64,000 bases of DNA from a virus, in the IMG/VR virus record IMGVR_UViG_3300029049_000007, positions 7,712-71,711 of that record; one strand, given 5' to 3'. Shown here piece by piece: positions 6,849 through 64,000 of this stretch (position 1 is its first letter; each line of letters starts with the position of its first letter). Below the pieces are notes generated by a model. The model saw only the letters and a program-made list of their open reading frames with translations. It had not been told where the DNA came from and did not search any database. Both the position numbers and the translations under genes were made by a program.

Positions 6849-9800
6849 TTAAGCTGCCTCCTTTGCTGCTCTGCGTATAATACTATAATCTTTAATCCAC
6901 CAGTCGTAAGTATCTGGAATATCTTCCCATCCACTATCTGTTTTGCGCCGTCTTGGTTCTTTTTTACAATCTTTAATGTAGAGGATATCACCGTCTTTAA
7001 CTTCTAAATCTTGAAAACTGGTCTTACATCTCTTGTCTCTGAAATTCTTTTTCTTATGAATCTTCATTTCTGAAACTTTTCCATTCTTGATGCAATAAGC
7101 TTCAAATTTGGGCGAATATTTCATATCTAAATTCATAACACAAACCGTTCTATATCCATCGTTTAACGATTCATCGGTATAATCTATGTATCCAAGAACT
7201 TCATATTGGAACTGAGCAATAAATTCAGAAGGAAATTCTTCTTTCGAAACATTAGAACATAGCGCCTTTATTAACCCAAGAACATTAAAAACCATCCATC
7301 TTTTTGCGCTTTTATTTCCTTTTGGCGTTACGTCAGTCGCATACCTTCTAAGATTTATTTTGTCTAAACCTAACTGTGGAACATCTGCTTTCGAAATTGT
7401 CTTTCTGTCTATCCACTTATCATAGATGTCTAAACATTGAAGAATATATTTGATGGAACCATACTGCTTAAAGTAATTGATTTTTACTAATTTTCTAAAT
7501 ACTGATGAATTTATCTTTGTTCCTTTTATTGCTGCATAAATATCAATGATATCTTTTCTCGAAGATTGAGAAATTTCCATCATAGATTCTACGGCTTTAT
7601 CTCCGATACTTTTAACGCTGGATAAATTAGGATATATAATTTTTTCTTTATCATCCACCGTAAACTTTGTGTTATCTTTGCCGTATTCGTAGGTTCCCAT
7701 TTTATAACCAAAAACTGTCATAGCTTCACGGGTTAACTCGGCAACTTTATTTTTGTCTCCTTTTCCCTGATAGTGATTAAGCGTTACCTCATAAAATACC
7801 GAAGTATGATTTGCTTTCATCCATGCTTCATAAAGACTATCATTCGCCATTGCTAAAGCATGAGGGGCATTAAAACTATATCTCGCCGAATCCTTAATTA
7901 CCTTATATACGGGCTCAAAGTTATCAAGATTACCAATATTTTTAAGCCAATGCTCTCGAAGAGTATCCTCTACATGTTGTAAAGCTTCTCCTTTCAGTTT
8001 CTTTTTGCTGATTTTCTTTATCGTGTCATAACTGTCTTTCATTTCGATTCCAAGCCACGAAAAAATCTTCATTACCGCTTCCTGATAAAGCATATAATGG
8101 AAACAATCTTCCAGTAATTCGTCGATCGCCGGTTCTCCATTTGTGTATTCCACCCTATCAAGAAAACCATTAATTAAGGACTTAAATCCCGGCCTGATTC
8201 CTGCAATAAATGCCGCCAATTCCTTTATATTTTTCGGCTTAAACTTCATGACTTTTTTAGTTGTAGACGCTTTCTCGCACTGATTTAAGCAACAGGTTGC
8301 TCCAATCTCGTACATCCTCCAGGTCTTTTCGTCCTCAGTTACCATTTTTCTTAATTCTGTAACCGAAGGAACTTCGCGCCCAATCGCCGCATAAAGTTTA
8401 TGTATAATACCTACGACATCTACGATTAAGAAATCGTCTTTTACATAGCCGTATTTATCAAGTAAATTCCCTTCAATATTTGCAACAATGGTTGTCTTCC
8501 CAGTGCTTTCAGAATGACATCGAATGAGTCCTATTTCATATCGAATATCCCCATAGCCCGGAACATCTTCTTCACCCTCAACACCATTGAACAGAGCAAA
8601 ACCGCAAGCATGAACCTTCGCCTGTTCGATGATCTCCTGATATGATTTACTCTCATTAAACAGTTTCAAATGGTGCTTGTCTGTAATGTAGTCTTCGATT
8701 TCTATGAGATCTCTATCTTCTTCCTCTGCGTTTTTGAGAGCTTCATTGTACCTGTCAATACTTTTTGTGATTTCATTTGCAACTGAAGGCTCAATTCCGT
8801 TTACTCCGGCATAGAGTTTGAACCCGTTTTTCTCCTTCAATCTACCGACGGCAAGCAACGGATAACAACCATGTTCTCCGCATAATTCTTTTCCCGCCAA
8901 AACAAATGGTTCTTGTGATTGGCAATTAATATCAATATCTGGCATTTGATGGGAATTTAGGATTCTATCCTTTGTTACAAACCTCTCTGGATAAATAGGA
9001 ACTTCTGATTCAAATCTATCCATAGTCGTAAACCCAAGTAACTTACTCGAATAATAAGAACTTGCACTTCCTCTTGAGGTTGTAGTTATGTGTCCTCCGT
9101 ACTTATTAACCGCCAAATCAATAAGTTCGTAGTTGTCTAAGAAATAATCAGCCGTTCCGCTTCCGTCTATCTCAGAATACTCATAAAGCATTCCTTCTTT
9201 TCTGTCTTCCGTTCTGTGTTCGAAGTCTTCTTCATTATATTTCTTGTTCAGCAAATCAAACAGAATTTTTGACCTTTCTTCATATGACTTCCCTTTATAT
9301 TTTTCAAGAATTGGTATCTTAAATTTGGTATTGTATTCTAATTCCTCACAGCCTTCATTGAATACATGCGTATTCATCATTGCATATATAATTTCTTCTG
9401 GAGGAATAACCCCCTGTTCTGTCATTCTTTCAAAAATTTCTGTTCCAGTCGGGAAATCCATATACCAGCCGTCTTCCTCGGGATATCGAATTCCTTTTCT
9501 CTTTAAAAGGTTATCTCTTTTAATCCTATCTTCTTCACTGATATAGTGAGTATCCAAACCAATAATTGTTTTAATTCCGGCTGACTGAGAAAGCTCGTAG
9601 ATAATACTGTTGATTTTCTTCTGTTCGTCTGTATTGTTTGCCTGATACTCGAGAAAAAAGCTGCTTCCAAAATGTTTCGCAACTCTATACCAAATTTCGG
9701 TTGCATCCTCATATTTCCACCCAGCAATGCAGGCAGATGTAATATAAACGTCATCTTCGTCTAGCTCAAAAAGCATATTTAAGTCGATTCGCGGCTTATA

Positions 9801-56361: not shown

Positions 56362-56364
56362 TTT

Positions 56365-56447
56365 TGCAGGGTAGCAAAGTTCGGTATTGCGCGGTCATAC
56401 AGCAAATCATTAGACCGAGACGAAGGTTCAAATCCTTCCTCTGCAAT
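56365..56447 (+). tRNA. tRNA-like gene with canonical acceptor, D and T arms but an enlarged 16-nt anticodon loop (possible anticodon CAU)
   Basis: Acceptor TGCAGGG/CTCTGCA, U8-A9, D-arm GCAA-AGTTCGGTA-TTGC, T-arm GAAGG-TTCAAAT-CCTTC. Anticodon stem CGGTC/GACCG encloses ATACAGCAAATCATTA. Confidence 0.35.
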
Positions 56448-56652: not shown

Positions 56653-57285
56653 TTGGATTATACTCTATTTTTTGATACCAATGCTCTTCTGAATCTTCAA
56701 GAACAAGCGTTTAAAGAGAAGTTTGTTATTGCTCAAAAAACTCTTGAAGAAATTGAAAGCATTAAATCTTCTTTTAATAAAGATGGAGAAGTAAAATATA
56801 AAGCTCGTAAGGTTGCTCATCTGCTAAACGACCGAGAGTCAGATTATGAAGTAATTCCTTACAGTCCAGAAATTCAAAACATTATTCAATTACATTATTT
56901 AGAAGAAACACCTGACAATATTATCCTCGCAAGTGCGTATTGCTATGATAATGCAGTAAATAAAGTCATTGTTGTTTCCGATGATTTAAACTGTAAATTC
57001 ATCAGCAAAAACATCTTTGATTTAACAACAAAAGGTATTGACGATATCAATATCGCAAAGAAAATTGAAAATTATAAAGGATATAAAGACGTTATTCTCT
57101 CTGATGAGGAAATGTCTTATTTTTACACTCATCTTTCGGAGAATATTTTTGAATGTATCTATGGAGAGTATTTAATTATCCGAAAATCTGATGGAGAAAT
57201 CGTGGACTACCGCAAGTGGAATGGGGCAGAATTATGCCGCGCTATCATATACACGCGTAAACAGCAATTTTCTTGGGGAAAATAA
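56653..57285 (+). CDS. PIN-domain protein (N-terminal half of a YlaK/PhoH2-type PIN-PhoH pair)
   Basis: TTG start. Acidic residues at PIN-like positions (LFFDTNALL, EEIESIK, VVSDDLN). Ends at a TAA immediately after the heptamer G_GGA_AAA. Confidence 0.55.
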   Translation: MDYTLFFDTNALLNLQEQAFKEKFVIAQKTLEEIESIKSSFNKDGEVKYKARKVAHLLNDRESDYEVIPYSPEIQNIIQLHYLEETPDNIILASAYCYDNAVNKVIVVSDDLNCKFISKNIFDLTTKGIDDINIAKKIENYKGYKDVILSDEEMSYFYTHLSENIFECIYGEYLIIRKSDGEIVDYRKWNGAELCRAIIYTRKQQFSWGK

Positions 57286-57893
57286 AGCCAATTAATCCAG
57301 AACAAATTTTAGGTTTTGATATGCTACAAGACGATTCTAAAACTATAAAAATACTGGCAGGAAAAGCCGGTAGCGGTAAAGATGCTATTATGATTGCAAA
57401 TGCAATAAAGATGATTGAAGACGGAAAATATGACAAGTTAATCTATGTTAGAAATCCCATTTCGGTACGAGATGTTAGCGAAATTGGTTTTCTTCCGGGT
57501 TCAGAGGAGGAAAAATTAAGCGTGTTCTCTCGCGCTCTCGCAGACCACTTAGGCGGGATCGAGGGGCTAGAAATGCTCATGTCTTCAGGTAAGGTAGAAA
57601 TAGAGCATCTTGGTTTCATCCGAGGAAGAGATTTAAAGAATGCAATCGTTTATTGCAGTGAAGCAGAAAATCTTACAAAAGACCATGTTCAGCTTTTAAT
57701 AAGTAGAATCGGAGAAGGTTCGTCTTTATGGATGAACGGAGATTATAAGCAAGTGGATAGTCCAACTTTCCGAATGAACAATGGATTATTATCTGCAATT
57801 CAAAAACTTGCAGGAAATGAATCATTTGGATATGTTCAACTTCAAAAGACTGAAAGAAGTAAAACTGCCGCATTAGCGGATTTATTAGATTAA
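57273..57893 (+). CDS. phoH: PhoH-like ATPase (C-terminal half of PIN-PhoH)
   Basis: Walker A GKAGSGKD. PhoH-like core (IYVRNPISV...GFLPGSEEEKL...HLGFIRGRDL). The start overlaps the PIN ORF in the -1 frame. Confidence 0.7.
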   Translation: MGKIKPINPEQILGFDMLQDDSKTIKILAGKAGSGKDAIMIANAIKMIEDGKYDKLIYVRNPISVRDVSEIGFLPGSEEEKLSVFSRALADHLGGIEGLEMLMSSGKVEIEHLGFIRGRDLKNAIVYCSEAENLTKDHVQLLISRIGEGSSLWMNGDYKQVDSPTFRMNNGLLSAIQKLAGNESFGYVQLQKTERSKTAALADLLD

Positions 57894-58791: not shown

Positions 58792-60015
58792 ATGGTAGAT
58801 TTACATGTGCTTCCCGGCGAAAATGCCGAAAAATATCTTTGGAGAATTGGACAGGCAAAGGATTCTGGCGAACTCGCGCTCGGCTGGAACGAGATTTCAA
58901 AATTGATGAATGAAAAATTCATTGATGATGAAATCGACTATAAGGGCAGCAGCGCATGGCGAAAAGATTATCGAACAACAAAAAAGTTTTTTGATGCTGG
59001 TGTTTTCGACAATTCCGACAAAGATAAAGAATTAAAAGACAAGAAACTCGAATTAGAAAAAGAACGAAAAAAATTGCAGACAGAAAAAATCGAGTATAAT
59101 CGCTGGATTAGAGAAGATGCTCGAGATGAGATGATTTTAGAAAGTATCTGCAACGCTATGAAGACTCTTCCCTCTATTTCACGCCCGCGTCCTATATTTA
59201 TTCCTCATAATCTTTCACAAGAGAAGGAATATCTTTTATGTATTGCTGACGCACATTATGGAGTAGAGTTTACATTGCCAGATTTATTGGGCAACAACAT
59301 AAACGCATATAGTCCAGAGATATTTGAAAATAGAATGTGGAAACTTCTTGATGAAGTTATTTCTATCATCAGAAAGGAAGACATCTCTCATCTGAACGTA
59401 TGGGAACTCGGAGATGGAATTGAAGGAATTTTAAGACTTACATCTCAGCTAATGAAGCTTAGATATGGAATTATTGACTCTTCTCTTCGTTATGCAAATT
59501 TCTTGGCAAGCTGGCTACTCGAACTTAGCAAATATGTAGAAATATCTTTTCAGATGGTAAAAGACTCGAATCACTGCCAGTTAAGAATCTGTAATGCAAA
59601 GAAAAACGCGTTTCCAGAGGAAAATATGTCTAAAGTCGTTTTGGCGTTTTTAAAAGAACGCCTTAAAGATGTTGACAGAATCACAATTTCAGAAAATCCG
59701 ACTGGTTTTACATTTGATAATTTTTGCGGCTCATATACTCTCGGCAATCACGGAGAAATGAAGAATTTCGCAAGTTCTGTAAATGATTTTGAAAGACTAT
59801 ATAATCAGCAGGTAGACTATGTTATCTGCGGACATGTACATCATTTCAAGGCGGAAGAAGTCGGAAAAAATTCTGAAGTAATCGCATGTCGTTCTATTAT
59901 GGGTGGAGACCCGTATGGCGCATCTCTAAATAGAGTTTCTAATGCAGGCGCATCGTTATTCGTTTTCGAAAATGGAAAAGGAAAAACCTGCGAATACACA
60001 ATTAAATTAGATTAG
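58792..60015 (+). CDS. metallophosphoesterase with 140-aa N-terminal extension
   Basis: CIADAHYG, ELGDGIEG, GNHGE and CGHVHHF match the calcineurin-like motif order. Confidence 0.6.
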   Translation: MVDLHVLPGENAEKYLWRIGQAKDSGELALGWNEISKLMNEKFIDDEIDYKGSSAWRKDYRTTKKFFDAGVFDNSDKDKELKDKKLELEKERKKLQTEKIEYNRWIREDARDEMILESICNAMKTLPSISRPRPIFIPHNLSQEKEYLLCIADAHYGVEFTLPDLLGNNINAYSPEIFENRMWKLLDEVISIIRKEDISHLNVWELGDGIEGILRLTSQLMKLRYGIIDSSLRYANFLASWLLELSKYVEISFQMVKDSNHCQLRICNAKKNAFPEENMSKVVLAFLKERLKDVDRITISENPTGFTFDNFCGSYTLGNHGEMKNFASSVNDFERLYNQQVDYVICGHVHHFKAEEVGKNSEVIACRSIMGGDPYGASLNRVSNAGASLFVFENGKGKTCEYTIKLD

Positions 60016-60085
60016 ATAATTTGAGGGAAATATCTCCCTCTTATTTTATACAAACAAAAAAGGATTTAAAAAGGAGAAAATTATT

Positions 60086-60376
60086 ATGGTAAGAAAAAAT
60101 GAATTTATTACAGCAATCGTAAAAAAAGTTGACGGATTAACAAAGAAAGATACAGCAATTATCTTAGATGCTATTTCTGAGACAATTACAGAGTGTCTTG
60201 TAGCTGGCGGCAAAGGAGAAAAGATTAATCTTCCGGGACTTGGTTCATTAGAAGTAAGAGAAAGAGCTGGACGAGAAGGAAGAAATCCTCAGACTGGCGA
60301 AAAGATTGATATTCCTGCAAAGCTTTATGTGAAGTTTAAAGCATCTAAGGCTTTTAAAGACGCTATCGCCGAATAA
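60086..60376 (+). CDS. hup: HU/IHF-family DNA-binding protein
   Basis: 96 aa. MVRKNEFITAIVKK...GLGSLEVRERAGREGRNPQTGEKIDIPA is the arm motif. Confidence 0.9.
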   Translation: MVRKNEFITAIVKKVDGLTKKDTAIILDAISETITECLVAGGKGEKINLPGLGSLEVRERAGREGRNPQTGEKIDIPAKLYVKFKASKAFKDAIAE

Positions 60377-60386
60377 TGGAGGATTT

Positions 60387-60848
60387 ATGAGATTTATAGA
60401 TTTTGATTCTATGTCAGATTTCGCTGAAAAGCTTATTCAGGCATCTGTATCTAGTGGCGACAAAAATCGTTATTGCGGAGTTGCTGTATGCAATTACGCA
60501 GTGGCCACTGGGCTTCTCGAAGAATTAGCAAAACGCAGTCAAAAATTCAGACACATTGATTTATCTGCTCCCGAAGTATCTGGCTATCTTAAAGAATATG
60601 CCATTATGGTGACAGAAAAAGGAATTTACTGCGAAAAAATGTATAAGCCGAATAATATGCGCCTTAATTTTAGAGGTTGTACTATTCCGGTATATGTTCA
60701 CGGAGAATGTTTTGACGAAATTGAAAATCTTGTAAATAAAGATTCTTTCGCGTTCAACATTATCCCTAAAGAATATAAGAAAGCAGAAAAGCAGCCGGAT
60801 AACACTGCTCCTTCTGTTTACAGATTAATCTGGGAAAACTTTAGTTAA
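60387..60848 (+). CDS. hypothetical protein
   Basis: 153 aa with a GGAGGA RBS. Confidence 0.45.
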   Translation: MRFIDFDSMSDFAEKLIQASVSSGDKNRYCGVAVCNYAVATGLLEELAKRSQKFRHIDLSAPEVSGYLKEYAIMVTEKGIYCEKMYKPNNMRLNFRGCTIPVYVHGECFDEIENLVNKDSFAFNIIPKEYKKAEKQPDNTAPSVYRLIWENFS

Positions 60849-60868
60849 TCTTAGATTATATTGAATTT

Positions 60869-60892
60869 TATAGAGCGGAAGCCGCTCTTTAT
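60869..60892 (+). terminator. intrinsic terminator
   Basis: GAGCGG-AAG-CCGCTC followed by TTTATT. Confidence 0.5.
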
Positions 60893-60964
60893 TGGCTGTT
60901 GGCGAAACGGAAACGCAACGGAATTTGACTCCGTGAATTCAGGGTTCGAATCCCTGGCGGCCAG
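60893..60964 (+). tRNA. tRNA-Gln (anticodon UUG)
   Basis: Complete manual cloverleaf: acceptor TGGCTGT/GCGGCCA, D-arm GCG-AAACGGAAA-CGC, anticodon arm ACGGA-ATTTGAC-TCCGT, variable GAATT, T-arm CAGGG-TTCGAAT-CCCTG, discriminator G. No encoded CCA. Confidence 0.7.
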
Positions 60965-61116
60965 TATTTAATTGATAGTGATTTATAGAAATACAGAATG
61001 TTTGCATTCAGGCAAAGGCACATGAGCGCCCTCTTGCCTTATAGACCACTATCACTAGCCCTTGGCTATCTTCGTGATGGTTGAGGGCATTTTTTGGCTT
61101 TTTTACGAGAAAGGAT

Positions 61117-62418
61117 GTGATTCTTCTGGCAACTACACAAACAAAAACTCGAGGCAAAGGAAAGAATCCTCCTGTTGCGGAAGTTCGTGCCGAAAATGAA
61201 AAATTAAAAGCTGAATTAGAACGTATTAAAAATAGTGCCTATTGCCATATGTGTGACAAACACAGGTCGAGAATATATTTTTACGAAAATTATGATCCTC
61301 GGAGTAAAGGAAAAGTCTCTCCTATTTGCATCGACTGTGCAAGAAAAATTGCCATGCGAACAGACGATAAAGGGATTGAGCATTCTCCAACAAAAGAGTC
61401 CCTAATTGAAGCGTTAAGATATGTAGATAAACCATTTTTCGAATCACTATACAATTCCAGTATTGAAGAATCAAAAAATGAATTTTCTGGACAGACACCG
61501 AAAACATTTTACGGTTGTTACATGAAGAATATTCAAATGCCGCAATATCGGACGTACAGATTTAAAGATTCTGACATATTTCAAATACCGGATTCTTCTC
61601 CAGAAAAGGAAATTGACGAGCAAGAAATGATTGCTTCTAAAGAGGGATTAGATGTGTATGATAGTTTTCAGAAAAACAAAGAAGATGTTATCCGATTATT
61701 AGACTACGACCCTTTTGAGCAAGAATCTGTAAAAGACCAACCACTCTTATACTCTCAACTTCTTGGAATGTTAGATGCTGACGGAGAAGGAAATGACGAC
61801 ATGATGCGAATTGCTTCTTGCGTGTCTATCGTTAGAAGCTTCTTACACCAGTCTAAAATCGACGATGCAGTAACGAAAATGATGATAGACCCGCTAAGAA
61901 TAAAGGATAATTCTGCGAGTATAAAATCACTGGAATCCAGTAAAGGTGACATTACTAGAAATATCACAAATTTAGCGGCAGAAAGCTGCATCTCATTGAA
62001 AAATAATAAAAATGCAAAAAAAGGCGAAAATACTTGGACTGGCAAAACAAAGAAAATGAAAAACCTGAATCTTCGAGAAAGCGAAGTAAATGGGTTTGAT
62101 GTTTGGACTTGTCGGGGTATGCAACAGGTTATGGAGATGAGCGACGCATCTATTATGAAGCAGCTTAATCTTGATGAGTCTGAATGGTCTGATATTGTTG
62201 CCGAACAGCGAGTGTTGCTTAGAAAAACTCAAGAAAATTGTCGGCAATACGAAGAAATATCGCGAATTTTGCTTAGAGAGAATATTGATTTAAAGGATTT
62301 ATTAAGAGAACATGATTTGTTAGAAGAAGATAATCTTGTTGACTTAGATAAACTATATTCTTGTTTCTCTGGCGAAAATGAGGAGGCTGTCTCAAATGAC
62401 AATCAATCCGAAAGCTGA
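61117..62418 (+). CDS. zinc-ribbon-containing protein upstream of terL; possible small terminase subunit/DNA-packaging protein
   Basis: The track TTG start at 61081 lies inside a terminator hairpin, so GTG 61117 (or ATG 61249) is preferred. Basic N-terminus, coiled coil, then CHMCDKH...CIDCARK. Immediately precedes and overlaps terL. Confidence 0.3.
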   Translation: MILLATTQTKTRGKGKNPPVAEVRAENEKLKAELERIKNSAYCHMCDKHRSRIYFYENYDPRSKGKVSPICIDCARKIAMRTDDKGIEHSPTKESLIEALRYVDKPFFESLYNSSIEESKNEFSGQTPKTFYGCYMKNIQMPQYRTYRFKDSDIFQIPDSSPEKEIDEQEMIASKEGLDVYDSFQKNKEDVIRLLDYDPFEQESVKDQPLLYSQLLGMLDADGEGNDDMMRIASCVSIVRSFLHQSKIDDAVTKMMIDPLRIKDNSASIKSLESSKGDITRNITNLAAESCISLKNNKNAKKGENTWTGKTKKMKNLNLRESEVNGFDVWTCRGMQQVMEMSDASIMKQLNLDESEWSDIVAEQRVLLRKTQENCRQYEEISRILLRENIDLKDLLREHDLLEEDNLVDLDKLYSCFSGENEEAVSNDNQSES

Positions 62419-64000
62419 GAAAACAATCAATGAAATTTATTCAAAAGTAAATATCGAAGATTATAATATTAAAATTTCCGACAAAAAGACTTTAAATGAA
62501 AAATATTTAAAAAATATATTCGGCGAAGCAGACAATAATACTATCTACGTTCGTCCGGGAATATACGCCATGTCTACTAGAAAAATCGAATCTCTCATTG
62601 CTCTTGCCGAAATCCAAAGATATTATCAAGCAAATCCTGTTCGGTTTATTGATGACTGGTTCAATATCGAACTGCTTGACGCGCAAGCATATATCGTTCA
62701 AAGGGCTTGGGTATGTCCAAATGTGTTACTGGTATGTAGTCGTGGATTTGGTAAATCTACAATTACAGATATTATCATTATGGCAAAAGATATGCTGTTT
62801 TCAAATTACTGGAGCTATATTGCTAGTGGTTCTGGTAGTCAGGCTGAACAGACTTTTACGACTCTTGAAAAACTTGCGAACGATAATATTGATAGCATGA
62901 TGGGTTCTACTGGCTATATTTTTAAAGATGAGGTCGAAGTTAAAAATGCCGCCGGAGACGGATTCAGTCATTCATCTGATGGGTTCTCGTACTCTCTCTA
63001 CAATGGTTCAATGACGAAAACACTTAATAGTAACGTTGACAAGAAGCGCGGCGCAAGAGGCAACTTAGTTGTTTTTGATGAGTGTGGATTCTTAGACGCA
63101 GATATGATGCATACATATGCTGCTTTTGTCATTGTTAATAAAGGGTTTGCTACCGGAAAAGACAGAGATGGAAATTCGATAGACATAAATCGACTTCGTT
63201 CTATCCCCTCTCCTATTCCTAATCAGCTCTTTTATATTAGTTCCGCTTCAAGCGTGGATACTGAATTTTATAGGTTATACAGAGACTTCTCTAAGAGAAT
63301 GATTATGGGCGACACCGATTATTTTGTTGCTCAAATTGATTGCGAGATTGTTTTGAAGCCAACAAAACGAGGTAAAGTTATCGCTCCTCTCTACTCTCGC
63401 TCCACTATCGAAGCAGCAATGAGAACCAATCCCGAAAAAGCTCGTAGAGAATATTATTGCGAGTTTACTACAGATGCTGGAGTTAATGCAATCGTTCGGC
63501 GAGGAGTTATTACTCGAAATGAAGAGACCCGTAAACCACTTCTATACAATGATACTGGCGACAAAAAATTCATTATTGCATATGACCCTGCTCGTTCACG
63601 AGATAATTCTGTAATTCTTGTATGTGAGGTATACGACTTTGTGCAGGTAAACGGAACTATCGATAAAAGAATGAGAATTGTTAATTGCATTAATCTTGTA
63701 GATGTCGGGAAAAAGATAAAATCCCCGATGCAGACACCAGATCAGATTGAATATTTAAAGAAAGTCATTCTTGATTATAATGGCGGAGCAGATGCTTATG
63801 GGAATATCTTGGCCGTATATATTGATGCAGGTTCTGGCGGTGGTGGTGTAAATATTGCGGACTATCTTATGCCAGACTGGACAGATAAATTTGGAATTGT
63901 TCATCGTGGCTTAATAGACAAAGAATATTCTGCTGAATACGTGAAAAAATTCCCTAATGCCGTAGATAAAATCCGTCTTATGTCTCCTGCTAAGTATAAA
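62396..64000 (+). CDS. terL: terminase large subunit (3' end runs past window end)
   Basis: Not in the ORF track because it has no stop. ATG 9 nt after AGGAGG. ATPase Walker A-like LVCSRGFGKST and Walker B NLVVFDECGF. RNaseH-like nuclease segment IIAYDPARSRDNSVILVCE. Confidence 0.8.
   Translation, partial: MTINPKAEKTINEIYSKVNIEDYNIKISDKKTLNEKYLKNIFGEADNNTIYVRPGIYAMSTRKIESLIALAEIQRYYQANPVRFIDDWFNIELLDAQAYIVQRAWVCPNVLLVCSRGFGKSTITDIIIMAKDMLFSNYWSYIASGSGSQAEQTFTTLEKLANDNIDSMMGSTGYIFKDEVEVKNAAGDGFSHSSDGFSYSLYNGSMTKTLNSNVDKKRGARGNLVVFDECGFLDADMMHTYAAFVIVNKGFATGKDRDGNSIDINRLRSIPSPIPNQLFYISSASSVDTEFYRLYRDFSKRMIMGDTDYFVAQIDCEIVLKPTKRGKVIAPLYSRSTIEAAMRTNPEKARREYYCEFTTDAGVNAIVRRGVITRNEETRKPLLYNDTGDKKFIIAYDPARSRDNSVILVCEVYDFVQVNGTIDKRMRIVNCINLVDVGKKIKSPMQTPDQIEYLKKVILDYNGGADAYGNILAVYIDAGSGGGGVNIADYLMPDWTDKFGIVHRGLIDKEYSAEYVKKFPNAVDKIRLMSPAKYK

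Follow-up and report, generated by a model that had tools for sequence, protein, structure and literature searches.

A PhoH2-type gene of an SPbeta-like human-gut phage, probably split by two recent single-G insertions that leave a slippery heptamer at the junction

Two overlapping open reading frames (ORFs) encoding a PIN domain and a PhoH domain lie on the plus strand of a 64,000-nucleotide (nt) stretch of viral DNA, positions 7,712 to 71,711 of IMG/VR record IMGVR_UViG_3300029049_000007, hereafter termed the window, and together appear to be the remains of a single PhoH2-type gene. The PIN ORF as found (56653..57285) starts at a TTG and encodes 210 amino acids (aa), with a match to Pfam PIN_4 (PF13638, E 1.5e-9) over residues 7-115, whilst its last 19 residues, AELCRAIIYTRKQQFSWGK, fall outside the ancestral frame when aligned to relatives. 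The PhoH-domain remainder (57273..57893) encodes 206 aa from TTG 57273 or 190 aa from ATG 57321, the start chosen by gene callers in two identical loci (L064 and L095), and matches Pfam PhoH (PF02562, E 1.9e-38), position 1 of the profile falling on residue 3. The upstream sequence holds no Shine-Dalgarno (SD) sequence before TTG 57273 or before ATG 57321. Removal of one G from each of two G-runs restores a 412-codon ORF (56653..57893), corresponding to the whole ancestral gene with its PIN, middle and PhoH regions. In the window, two frameshifts separate PIN from PhoH, and the domains are not carried on one polypeptide.

An earlier note, made from the sequence alone, had drawn attention to this junction and offered three readings of it: programmed -1 frameshifting, a recent or sequencing frameshift, or a genuinely split pair of proteins. 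Its description of the letters was borne out. The PIN frame reads CAA TTT TCT TGG GGA AAA TAA across 57265-57285 and so ends TCT TGG GGA AAA TAA (57271-57285), with PhoH in the -1 frame, which reads TTG GGG AAA ATA AAG at the junction and remains open to 57893; the annotated TTG start inside the PIN gene indeed has no ribosome binding site, and the product of a -1 slip, put at about 410 aa, was computed as 413 aa. The heptamer G_GGA_AAA (57276-57282) and the TAA stop of the PIN frame that follows directly (together 57276..57285, plus strand) were confirmed by direct reading. The -1 frame is closed upstream by TAA at 57258-57260 and open only from 57261, so that, with the PIN stop at 57285, any shift joining the frames is confined to 57261-57285 (25 nt), and the heptamer lies inside this overlap, in the 0 frame and directly before the stop. 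A second extra G 52 nt upstream, at 57223-57226, had been overlooked.

The origin of this arrangement became apparent from comparison with relatives. Scanning IMG/VR with the protein recovered 63 loci at 46-97% protein identity, none of which (0/63) is split at the junction site. Of the 58 loci that cover the gene completely, all but L005 carry it without interruption from stop to stop, over ~412-430 codons; in L005 a premature stop cuts the PhoH domain short near its end. The other IMG/VR loci (L057-L060) carry a PIN-less version of the gene. Four loci (L001, L004, L005 and L033) share 98.0-99.2% DNA identity with the window over 7.2 kb, and nucleotide alignment of the junction against all six close relatives revealed two extra bases in the window. 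The first lesion (57223..57226, plus strand) turns GGG into GGGG at codon 191, changing AAT GGG CAG of the close relatives to AATGGGGCAG, and the second (57275..57278, plus strand) does the same at codon 208, changing CTT GGG AAA to CTTGGGGAAA and creating the heptamer. Each is a +1 insertion, giving a net effect of +2 that leaves the frame unrestored. These are the only indels across the 7.2 kb that separate the window from L001, L004 and L005, and L033 adds just one further difference, in an intergenic A-run. The heptamer itself is absent from the relatives, and since the close relatives have only three Gs at the junction (CTT GGG AAA), it must have been made by the second insertion.

The translation of the repaired gene, 412 aa long, has a single missense change (T148I) relative to its closest relatives, alongside 0-11 synonymous differences, and matches phrog_2765 ('PhoH-like') from end to end (residues 5-410, 1.8e-90). 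The hypothetical fusion aligned in one piece by tblastn, over 98-99% of its length and at 29-35% identity, to single-ORF phage PhoH/PhoH2 genes; these end-to-end alignments bear out the statement of the earlier note that a PIN-PhoH fusion is the usual architecture. Each of the 58 full-length relatives likewise joins both domains in one polypeptide, as does the dominant allele of this phage population (P0003, 671 contigs). The top NCBIfam match of the repaired protein, NF053827 ('RNA 5'-3' helicase PhoH2'), covers residues 84-408 at 121.3 bits against a cut-off of 680, and the protein is a distant relative rather than an equivalog.

The two insertions also determine what a ribosome could make of the locus. 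Three-frame translation against the intact allele P0003, which reads DYRKWNGQNYAALSYTRVNSNFLGKIKPINPEQ at the junction, places the ancestral frame of 57227..57274 (plus strand; QNYAALSYTRVNSNFL) in the +1 frame of the PIN ORF, and this stretch is consequently read outside the ancestral frame in normal translation and in the proposed -1 product alike, whilst beyond the second insertion the gene lies at +2, equivalent to the -1 frame. Because there are two insertions, a single -1 slip is unable to recreate the ancestral protein; its product would carry GAELCRAIIYTRKQQFSW instead of GQNYAALSYTRVNSNFLG at residues 191-208. Among 29 distinct relatives, these residues form the least conserved segment of the protein (mean identity to the window residue 0.49, versus 0.64-0.71 elsewhere), and despite the low mean several of the positions are well conserved. 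Two successive +1 slips on GGG_G, which would restore the wild-type protein, were also considered; both sites would formally allow re-pairing, but with each event rare the combined yield would be negligible.

Programmed -1 frameshifting on G_GGA_AAA, proposed as a means of setting a fixed PIN:PIN-PhoH ratio, takes its appeal from a formally canonical heptamer standing in the right frame, within the short overlap and directly before the 0-frame stop, and from the 413-aa fusion it would give, which has the usual length and would contain the junction peptide QQFSWGKIKPINPEQ / FSWGKIKPINPEQILGFDMLQDDSK. We searched for the signals expected to accompany such a site. Where a stimulatory structure would be expected (57286..57382, plus strand), none was found by folding, although pseudoknots were not searched explicitly: the 50 nt 3' of the heptamer fold at -4.9 kcal/mol (z -0.68) and the 100 nt 3' of it give z -1.08, neither better than shuffled sequences, and the nearest stable hairpin begins ~70 nt downstream of the heptamer. 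The upstream sequence ACGCGTAAACAGCAATTTTCTT holds no SD, and nothing SD-like occurs within the 25 nt before the heptamer. Sharma et al. (2014; PMC4066793), who measured every heptamer in E. coli, report 0.117% frameshifting for GGGAAAA without a stimulator against a background of ~0.055% (their Table S3), rising to 0.51% with the IS911 stimulators and 17% with the IS3 pseudoknot, and their introduction cites G_GG.A_AA.A as an inefficient E. coli motif. Leakage at the ~0.1% level would be plausible for the junction on these measurements.

Heptamers of this kind are common in the window. In-frame X_XXZ_ZZN heptamers (Z = A or T) were counted in the 15,282 codons of the window's long ORFs (window G+C content 36%), giving 107 occurrences, six of them G_GGA_AAA, and an expected chance of ~5% for a heptamer within an overlap of eight codons. 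At this junction its appearance was automatic, because one G was added to a GGG directly before AAAA. The junction copy is the sole in-frame heptamer of the window directly followed by a stop. Lacking conservation and a stimulator, and consisting of a weak motif, the site does not pass the tests for a programmed signal: the arrangement occurs in none of the 63 relatives nor in any other allele, relatives that are read through without any shift share its downstream sequence, and the product would retain 18 out-of-frame residues (191-208), the earlier insertion going uncorrected. We accordingly regard programmed frameshifting as extremely improbable here; two of the checks that the earlier note had suggested, conservation of heptamer and frame in homologous phages and a stem-loop downstream, came out negative, the latter by folding as described above.

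A more mundane possibility is that homopolymer miscalls entered the consensus, the gene being in truth intact, with 412 codons and GGG at each site. Both differences are one-base homopolymer extensions, as such errors would be, and pattern scans recovered no exact match to the allele (0 for the junction 39-mer of the window in IMG/VR, and 0 for a 28-mer at each GGGG site in JGI metagenome contigs), so that these scans provide no independent confirmation. Against this, the exact 210-aa product, out-of-frame tail included, is recorded on five contigs in an exact-protein look-up, and the three that were retrieved come from different assemblies that agree exactly: ENA SPAdes ERZ1742152 NODE_6 (170,886 bp), Logan run ERR525895 (10.4 kb) and JGI 3300045988 Ga0495776_151007 (119,695 bp), which are 100% identical to the window over 17.3, 10.4 and 6.6 kb, respectively. 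In these window-identical sequences (L064, L065 and L095) the second +G is present. The first +G, moreover, turned up by itself in another, unrelated sample with another haplotype (L073, Logan ERR11477081).

A raw megablast listing of indels across the window was unusable for judging assembly quality, with paired alignment artefacts dominating the diverged stretches, and a gene-based frame test was used in its place, in which each stop-to-stop ORF of the relatives, down to a length of 120 codons, had to be readable in the window in a single frame without a stop. Against IMG/VR contig 139853 (L084, L088 and L001), covering ~46 kb of the window, 51 of 52 ORFs passed and the sole failure was the PhoH2 gene; tests against other relatives gave a few failures, which either fall at the ends of ORFs or are breaks on the relatives' side. 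Had the assembly been prone to homopolymer error, breaks would be expected at the many longer, more error-prone A/T runs, and their absence there speaks for real lesions. Other lesions of the same gene, described below, are numerous, appear bona fide and include nonsense substitutions unlike homopolymer errors. From these sequence comparisons we consider the two insertions very likely to be real and the miscall explanation quite unlikely. Of the earlier suggestion of a recent or sequencing frameshift, it is therefore the recent, real form that the two +G in three assemblies and the otherwise unbroken genes favour, with one shift corrected to two.

The wider phage population places these lesions in context. 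An allele catalogue was built by exact-sequence cluster look-up, and contigs bearing truncated products were aligned to the intact allele. The intact 412-aa allele P0003 is dominant (671 contigs, the longest 2.18 Mb), and its presence on a contig of that length indicates that the phage also exists as a prophage. Alongside it, at least 12 independent loss-of-function alleles were found in near-identical phage genomes from different samples (L005, L066-L081). Frameshift alleles comprise the window's own combination of +G at codon 191 with +G at codon 208, +G at codon 191 alone (L073), +A at codon 188 (L070), -A at codon 28 (L076), +A at codon 47 (L081) and -CT at codon 148 (L077). Nonsense alleles comprise Q192* (CAG>TAG; L067, L072 and L075), Q217* (L071), G143* (L078 and L079), K29* together with a rewritten PIN active-site motif (L080) and Q366* (L005, P0004 and P0006), the last truncating the C-terminus of the PhoH domain to leave 365 aa. 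The look-up also returned a 386-aa product with a C-terminal truncation of the PhoH domain (P0008), and in two loci (L069 and L074) the 5' half of the gene has been replaced, with a breakpoint at about nt 598 of the gene.

In most of the nonsense alleles the stop is the sole amino-acid change, set against 6-12 synonymous differences. L080 is the exception, with four further substitutions in the PIN active-site motif: changes in four neighbouring codons (8-11) turn FFDTNA into FFFFYS, an unusual clustering of multi-base change in the same allele as K29*. In L069 and L074, unrelated minus-strand genes stand in place of the PIN and middle regions, and the breakpoint (~codon 200; ~1375 of the locus) falls in the same linker region as the window's lesions. 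Over 3.5 kb, the nearest haplotypes to the window are L079 (5 mismatches) and L077 (10 mismatches), both with different lesions. Stepwise descent of the window allele from L073 was considered and is not supported, L073 differing by 17 mismatches over the same 3.5 kb compared to 5 for L079. The occurrence of +G at codon 191 on two haplotypes (the window and L073, ~1403 of the locus) could reflect either a recurrent insertion hotspot at the G3 run or movement of the insertion by recombination.

Neighbouring genes provide a rough baseline, taken from cluster listings that are not random samples. All 15 listed members of the adjacent YonJ-like gene cluster are full length, the ClpP-like neighbour has a few short fragments among its listed members, and the 204-aa gene upstream is represented just by 195-aa and 204-aa forms. 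Broken PhoH2 contigs are roughly estimated at ~10%, versus 0-2% for the neighbours, figures that are only indicative given the non-random listings. The pattern of substitutions across these alleles, with 0-1 missense changes set beside 6-12 synonymous ones, points to a PhoH2 protein that is under strong purifying selection overall, yet has recently and repeatedly been knocked out, and it suggests that recurrent inactivation of the gene is possibly selected.

In one alternative, the second +G was a 'savior' indel, in a population where the gene would be under conflicting selection, with at least 12 independent knock-outs of an otherwise strongly constrained protein. Under this alternative, the second insertion was selected after the first had killed the gene, and the slippery site with its shifty stop would supply a trickle of fusion protein bearing a rewritten 18-residue linker. 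The first insertion does occur alone in nature (L073), the second lies merely 52 nt away, a single step gives both the net -1 frame and an X_XXY_YYZ heptamer beside a stop, conservation in the protein is lowest across the scrambled segment (mean 0.49), and corrective indels are discussed in the frameshifting literature, in a passage of PMC5009743. The expected efficiency of ~0.1% without stimulators is nevertheless small, and several conserved positions within residues 191-208 would be lost. The closest relatives carry different lesions and thus show no sign that the allele has spread, and the population evidence indicates that loss of the gene is tolerated or favoured, leaving rescue unneeded. 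We judge this scenario very improbable.

Alternatively, the split itself might be functional, with a free PIN nuclease and a separate PhoH ATPase acting as two subunits and the latter translated by reinitiation at TTG 57273 or ATG 57321. The stop and the candidate restart codons lie within ~40 nt, and the PhoH half is intact and identical in protein sequence to that of other alleles. The two halves are also separable in evolution, as a PIN-less PhoH with its own SD is stable in L057-L060 and L092. In the window, neither start is preceded by an SD, initiation at ATG 57321 would drop the first ~17 residues of the Pfam PhoH domain, and the natural PIN-less forms begin ~85 residues further upstream than the window's PhoH fragment and keep the middle region. 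The diversity of lesions, which includes PhoH truncations at 365 and 386 aa, fits loss of function better. The 'genuinely split pair' of the earlier note thus gains a conceivable precedent from the PIN-less lineage, but is weakened by a PhoH half without a ribosome binding site, and we consider it unlikely.

The PIN-less lineage has features of its own. L057-L060 (3031-3861) and L092, an Oscillospiraceae metagenome-assembled genome (MAG), carry a stable 278-aa PhoH consisting of the middle region and PhoH, in a more distant lineage at 52% identity. In L057-L060 this gene has an SD (GAGGTG) and stands directly after the ClpP-like gene, not before it. An in-frame stop or recoding was suspected in these loci and rejected, since the ClpP gene simply shares its frame with the PIN-less PhoH gene behind it, which has an SD of its own.

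Overall, we consider it likely that the window contains an ordinary mutational split, in which a PhoH2-type gene of an SPbeta-like human-gut phage was broken by two recent +G insertions and the heptamer arose as a by-product. Genes of this type fuse a PIN RNase domain to a PhoH ATPase/helicase domain; in this one strain, two GGG runs separated by 52 nt would each have gained a G independently and so broken the gene. The first, at codon 191, would put the ribosome out of frame; the second, at codon 208, would add another +1, placing PhoH in the net -1 frame and creating GGGGAAAA-TAA. Normal translation would then yield a 210-aa PIN-only protein with a 19-residue nonsense tail, whilst the PhoH part, without a ribosome binding site, would be made at best in traces through reinitiation or rare slippage (~0.1%), and is probably irrelevant. 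We infer that a truncated PIN protein is made, with low or zero fusion and little or no PhoH. The lesion stands beside many other independent knock-outs of the gene in this phage population, where such knock-outs are presumably tolerated or favoured by selection.

Several observations weigh against this ordinary split. The three identical assemblies may share one sample or even the same reads, the SPAdes contig has a coverage of just ~7x, and a read-level error at both G-runs is formally possible. It is also a somewhat unlikely outcome of simple neutral decay that both insertions hit G3 runs, and only 52 nt from each other, when this AT-rich gene offers longer runs of A and T; the chance of such proximity alone within a 1.2-kb gene is estimated at ~8%. 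A stop directly after the heptamer ('shifty stop') may also raise slippage somewhat.

Genes downstream of the PhoH2 gene (window 58792-64000, L064) match Pfam YonJ_N/YonJ_CC, YonG_N and YonD_N and include an HU-like DNA-binding protein; the YonJ, YonG and YonD matches indicate an SPbeta-like phage. A host search of species-representative genomes returned just 43-71% relatives, in Waltera intestinalis and in Erysipelotrichaceae, Oscillospiraceae and Clostridiales MAGs, and the host is probably a gut Firmicutes. In most related phages (L006, L008, L014, L019, L027, L028, L035, L050 and L061), a tRNA gene is located ~250-400 nt upstream of the PhoH2 gene, a slot that is conserved in position and variable in identity (Asn, Ile, Thr, Ser, Asp, Met and Tyr). 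In the window, tRNA-Tyr(gta) is directly followed by a tRNA-like gene (56364-56447, plus strand) that matches the Rfam tRNA model (48.4 bits, E 1e-8) and also occurs in L033 (2712-2795) and in L002 and L003 (2704-2786). Its anticodon stem, CGGUC/GACCG, encloses a 16-nt loop, AUACAGCAAAUCAUUA, and ARAGORN reports it as 'tRNA-???' with a 4-base anticodon, acag, whilst making no such call in L001, L004 or L005, whose overall identity is 98-99%. Possible identities are a degenerate tRNA, an intron-like insertion or a quadruplet decoder. A role as frameshift suppressor at the GGGG sites was rejected, as acag would read CUGU rather than GGGG and the gene is undetected in several close relatives.

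The PhoH domain matches PDB 3b85 (E 1e-20), from which it departs at both nucleotide-binding motifs. Walker A (57358-57381, plus strand) reads GKAGSGKD, with GKD in 21 of 30 distinct clade members and GKS in the other nine, where the canonical form is GxxxxGKT/S, and Walker B (57646-57669, plus strand) reads VYCSEAEN, with [S/T]E throughout the clade, where the canonical form is hhhhDE; the corresponding motifs of 3b85 are GKT and DEAQN.

For annotation, the two ORFs are best recorded as one disrupted PhoH2-type gene. A frameshift-disrupted gene is an already known kind of thing, and the locus is of low interest as a recoding candidate. It does carry a caution, as a homopolymer that gains one base can automatically yield a textbook slippery heptamer at an ORF junction, and recoding should therefore not be proposed until relatives have been examined for conservation of the site. 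The more interesting by-product, modestly so, is that the gene is repeatedly inactivated in nature, which suggests that PhoH2 carries a cost in certain hosts or during lysogeny, toxicity and sensing by a defence system being possible causes. The role of PhoH-family proteins in phages is a long-standing question, to which these natural knock-outs offer a handle.

Compared with known bacterial -1 sites (dnaX A_AAA_AAG, the IS911/IS3 transposases and the phage tail-chaperone G/GT), the window shares an X_XXY_YYZ heptamer in the overlap of a 0-frame and a -1 ORF. Those sites are preserved across homologues and are usually accompanied by an SD upstream, a hairpin or pseudoknot downstream, or both, whereas the window has none of these and its motif is among the weaker ones in E. 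coli. PIN-PhoH fusions are present in bacteria and bacteriophages, as stated in a passage of PMC5499597, which also cites a study of PhoH2 proteins in mycobacteria (Andrews and Arcus 2015). With PhoH2 proteins of this kind (PIN_4/COG1875 plus PhoH; B. subtilis YlaK type), the repaired gene, at ~412 aa, shares the order of N-terminal PIN_4 and C-terminal PhoH, but differs in an NF053827 score far below the cut-off, in non-canonical Walker motifs and in being broken by two frameshifts. Its similarity to phage PhoH2-like genes (phrog_2765; Lactococcus phiL47 and WRP3; Bacillus Tsamsa, Izhevsk and FADO; Clostridium D-1873) extends from end to end at 29-35% identity, yet these are intact single ORFs and the frameshift junction is seen in none of them. 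The closest likeness is to frameshift pseudogenes and loss-of-function polymorphisms at short homopolymers, with which the window shares single-base run extensions, an unrestored frame, a very recent origin (0-11 synonymous changes) and the presence of other nonsense and frameshift alleles alongside. Nothing essential sets the window apart from these; what is unusual is the occurrence of two hits 52 nt apart, together with many independent knock-outs of a constrained gene.

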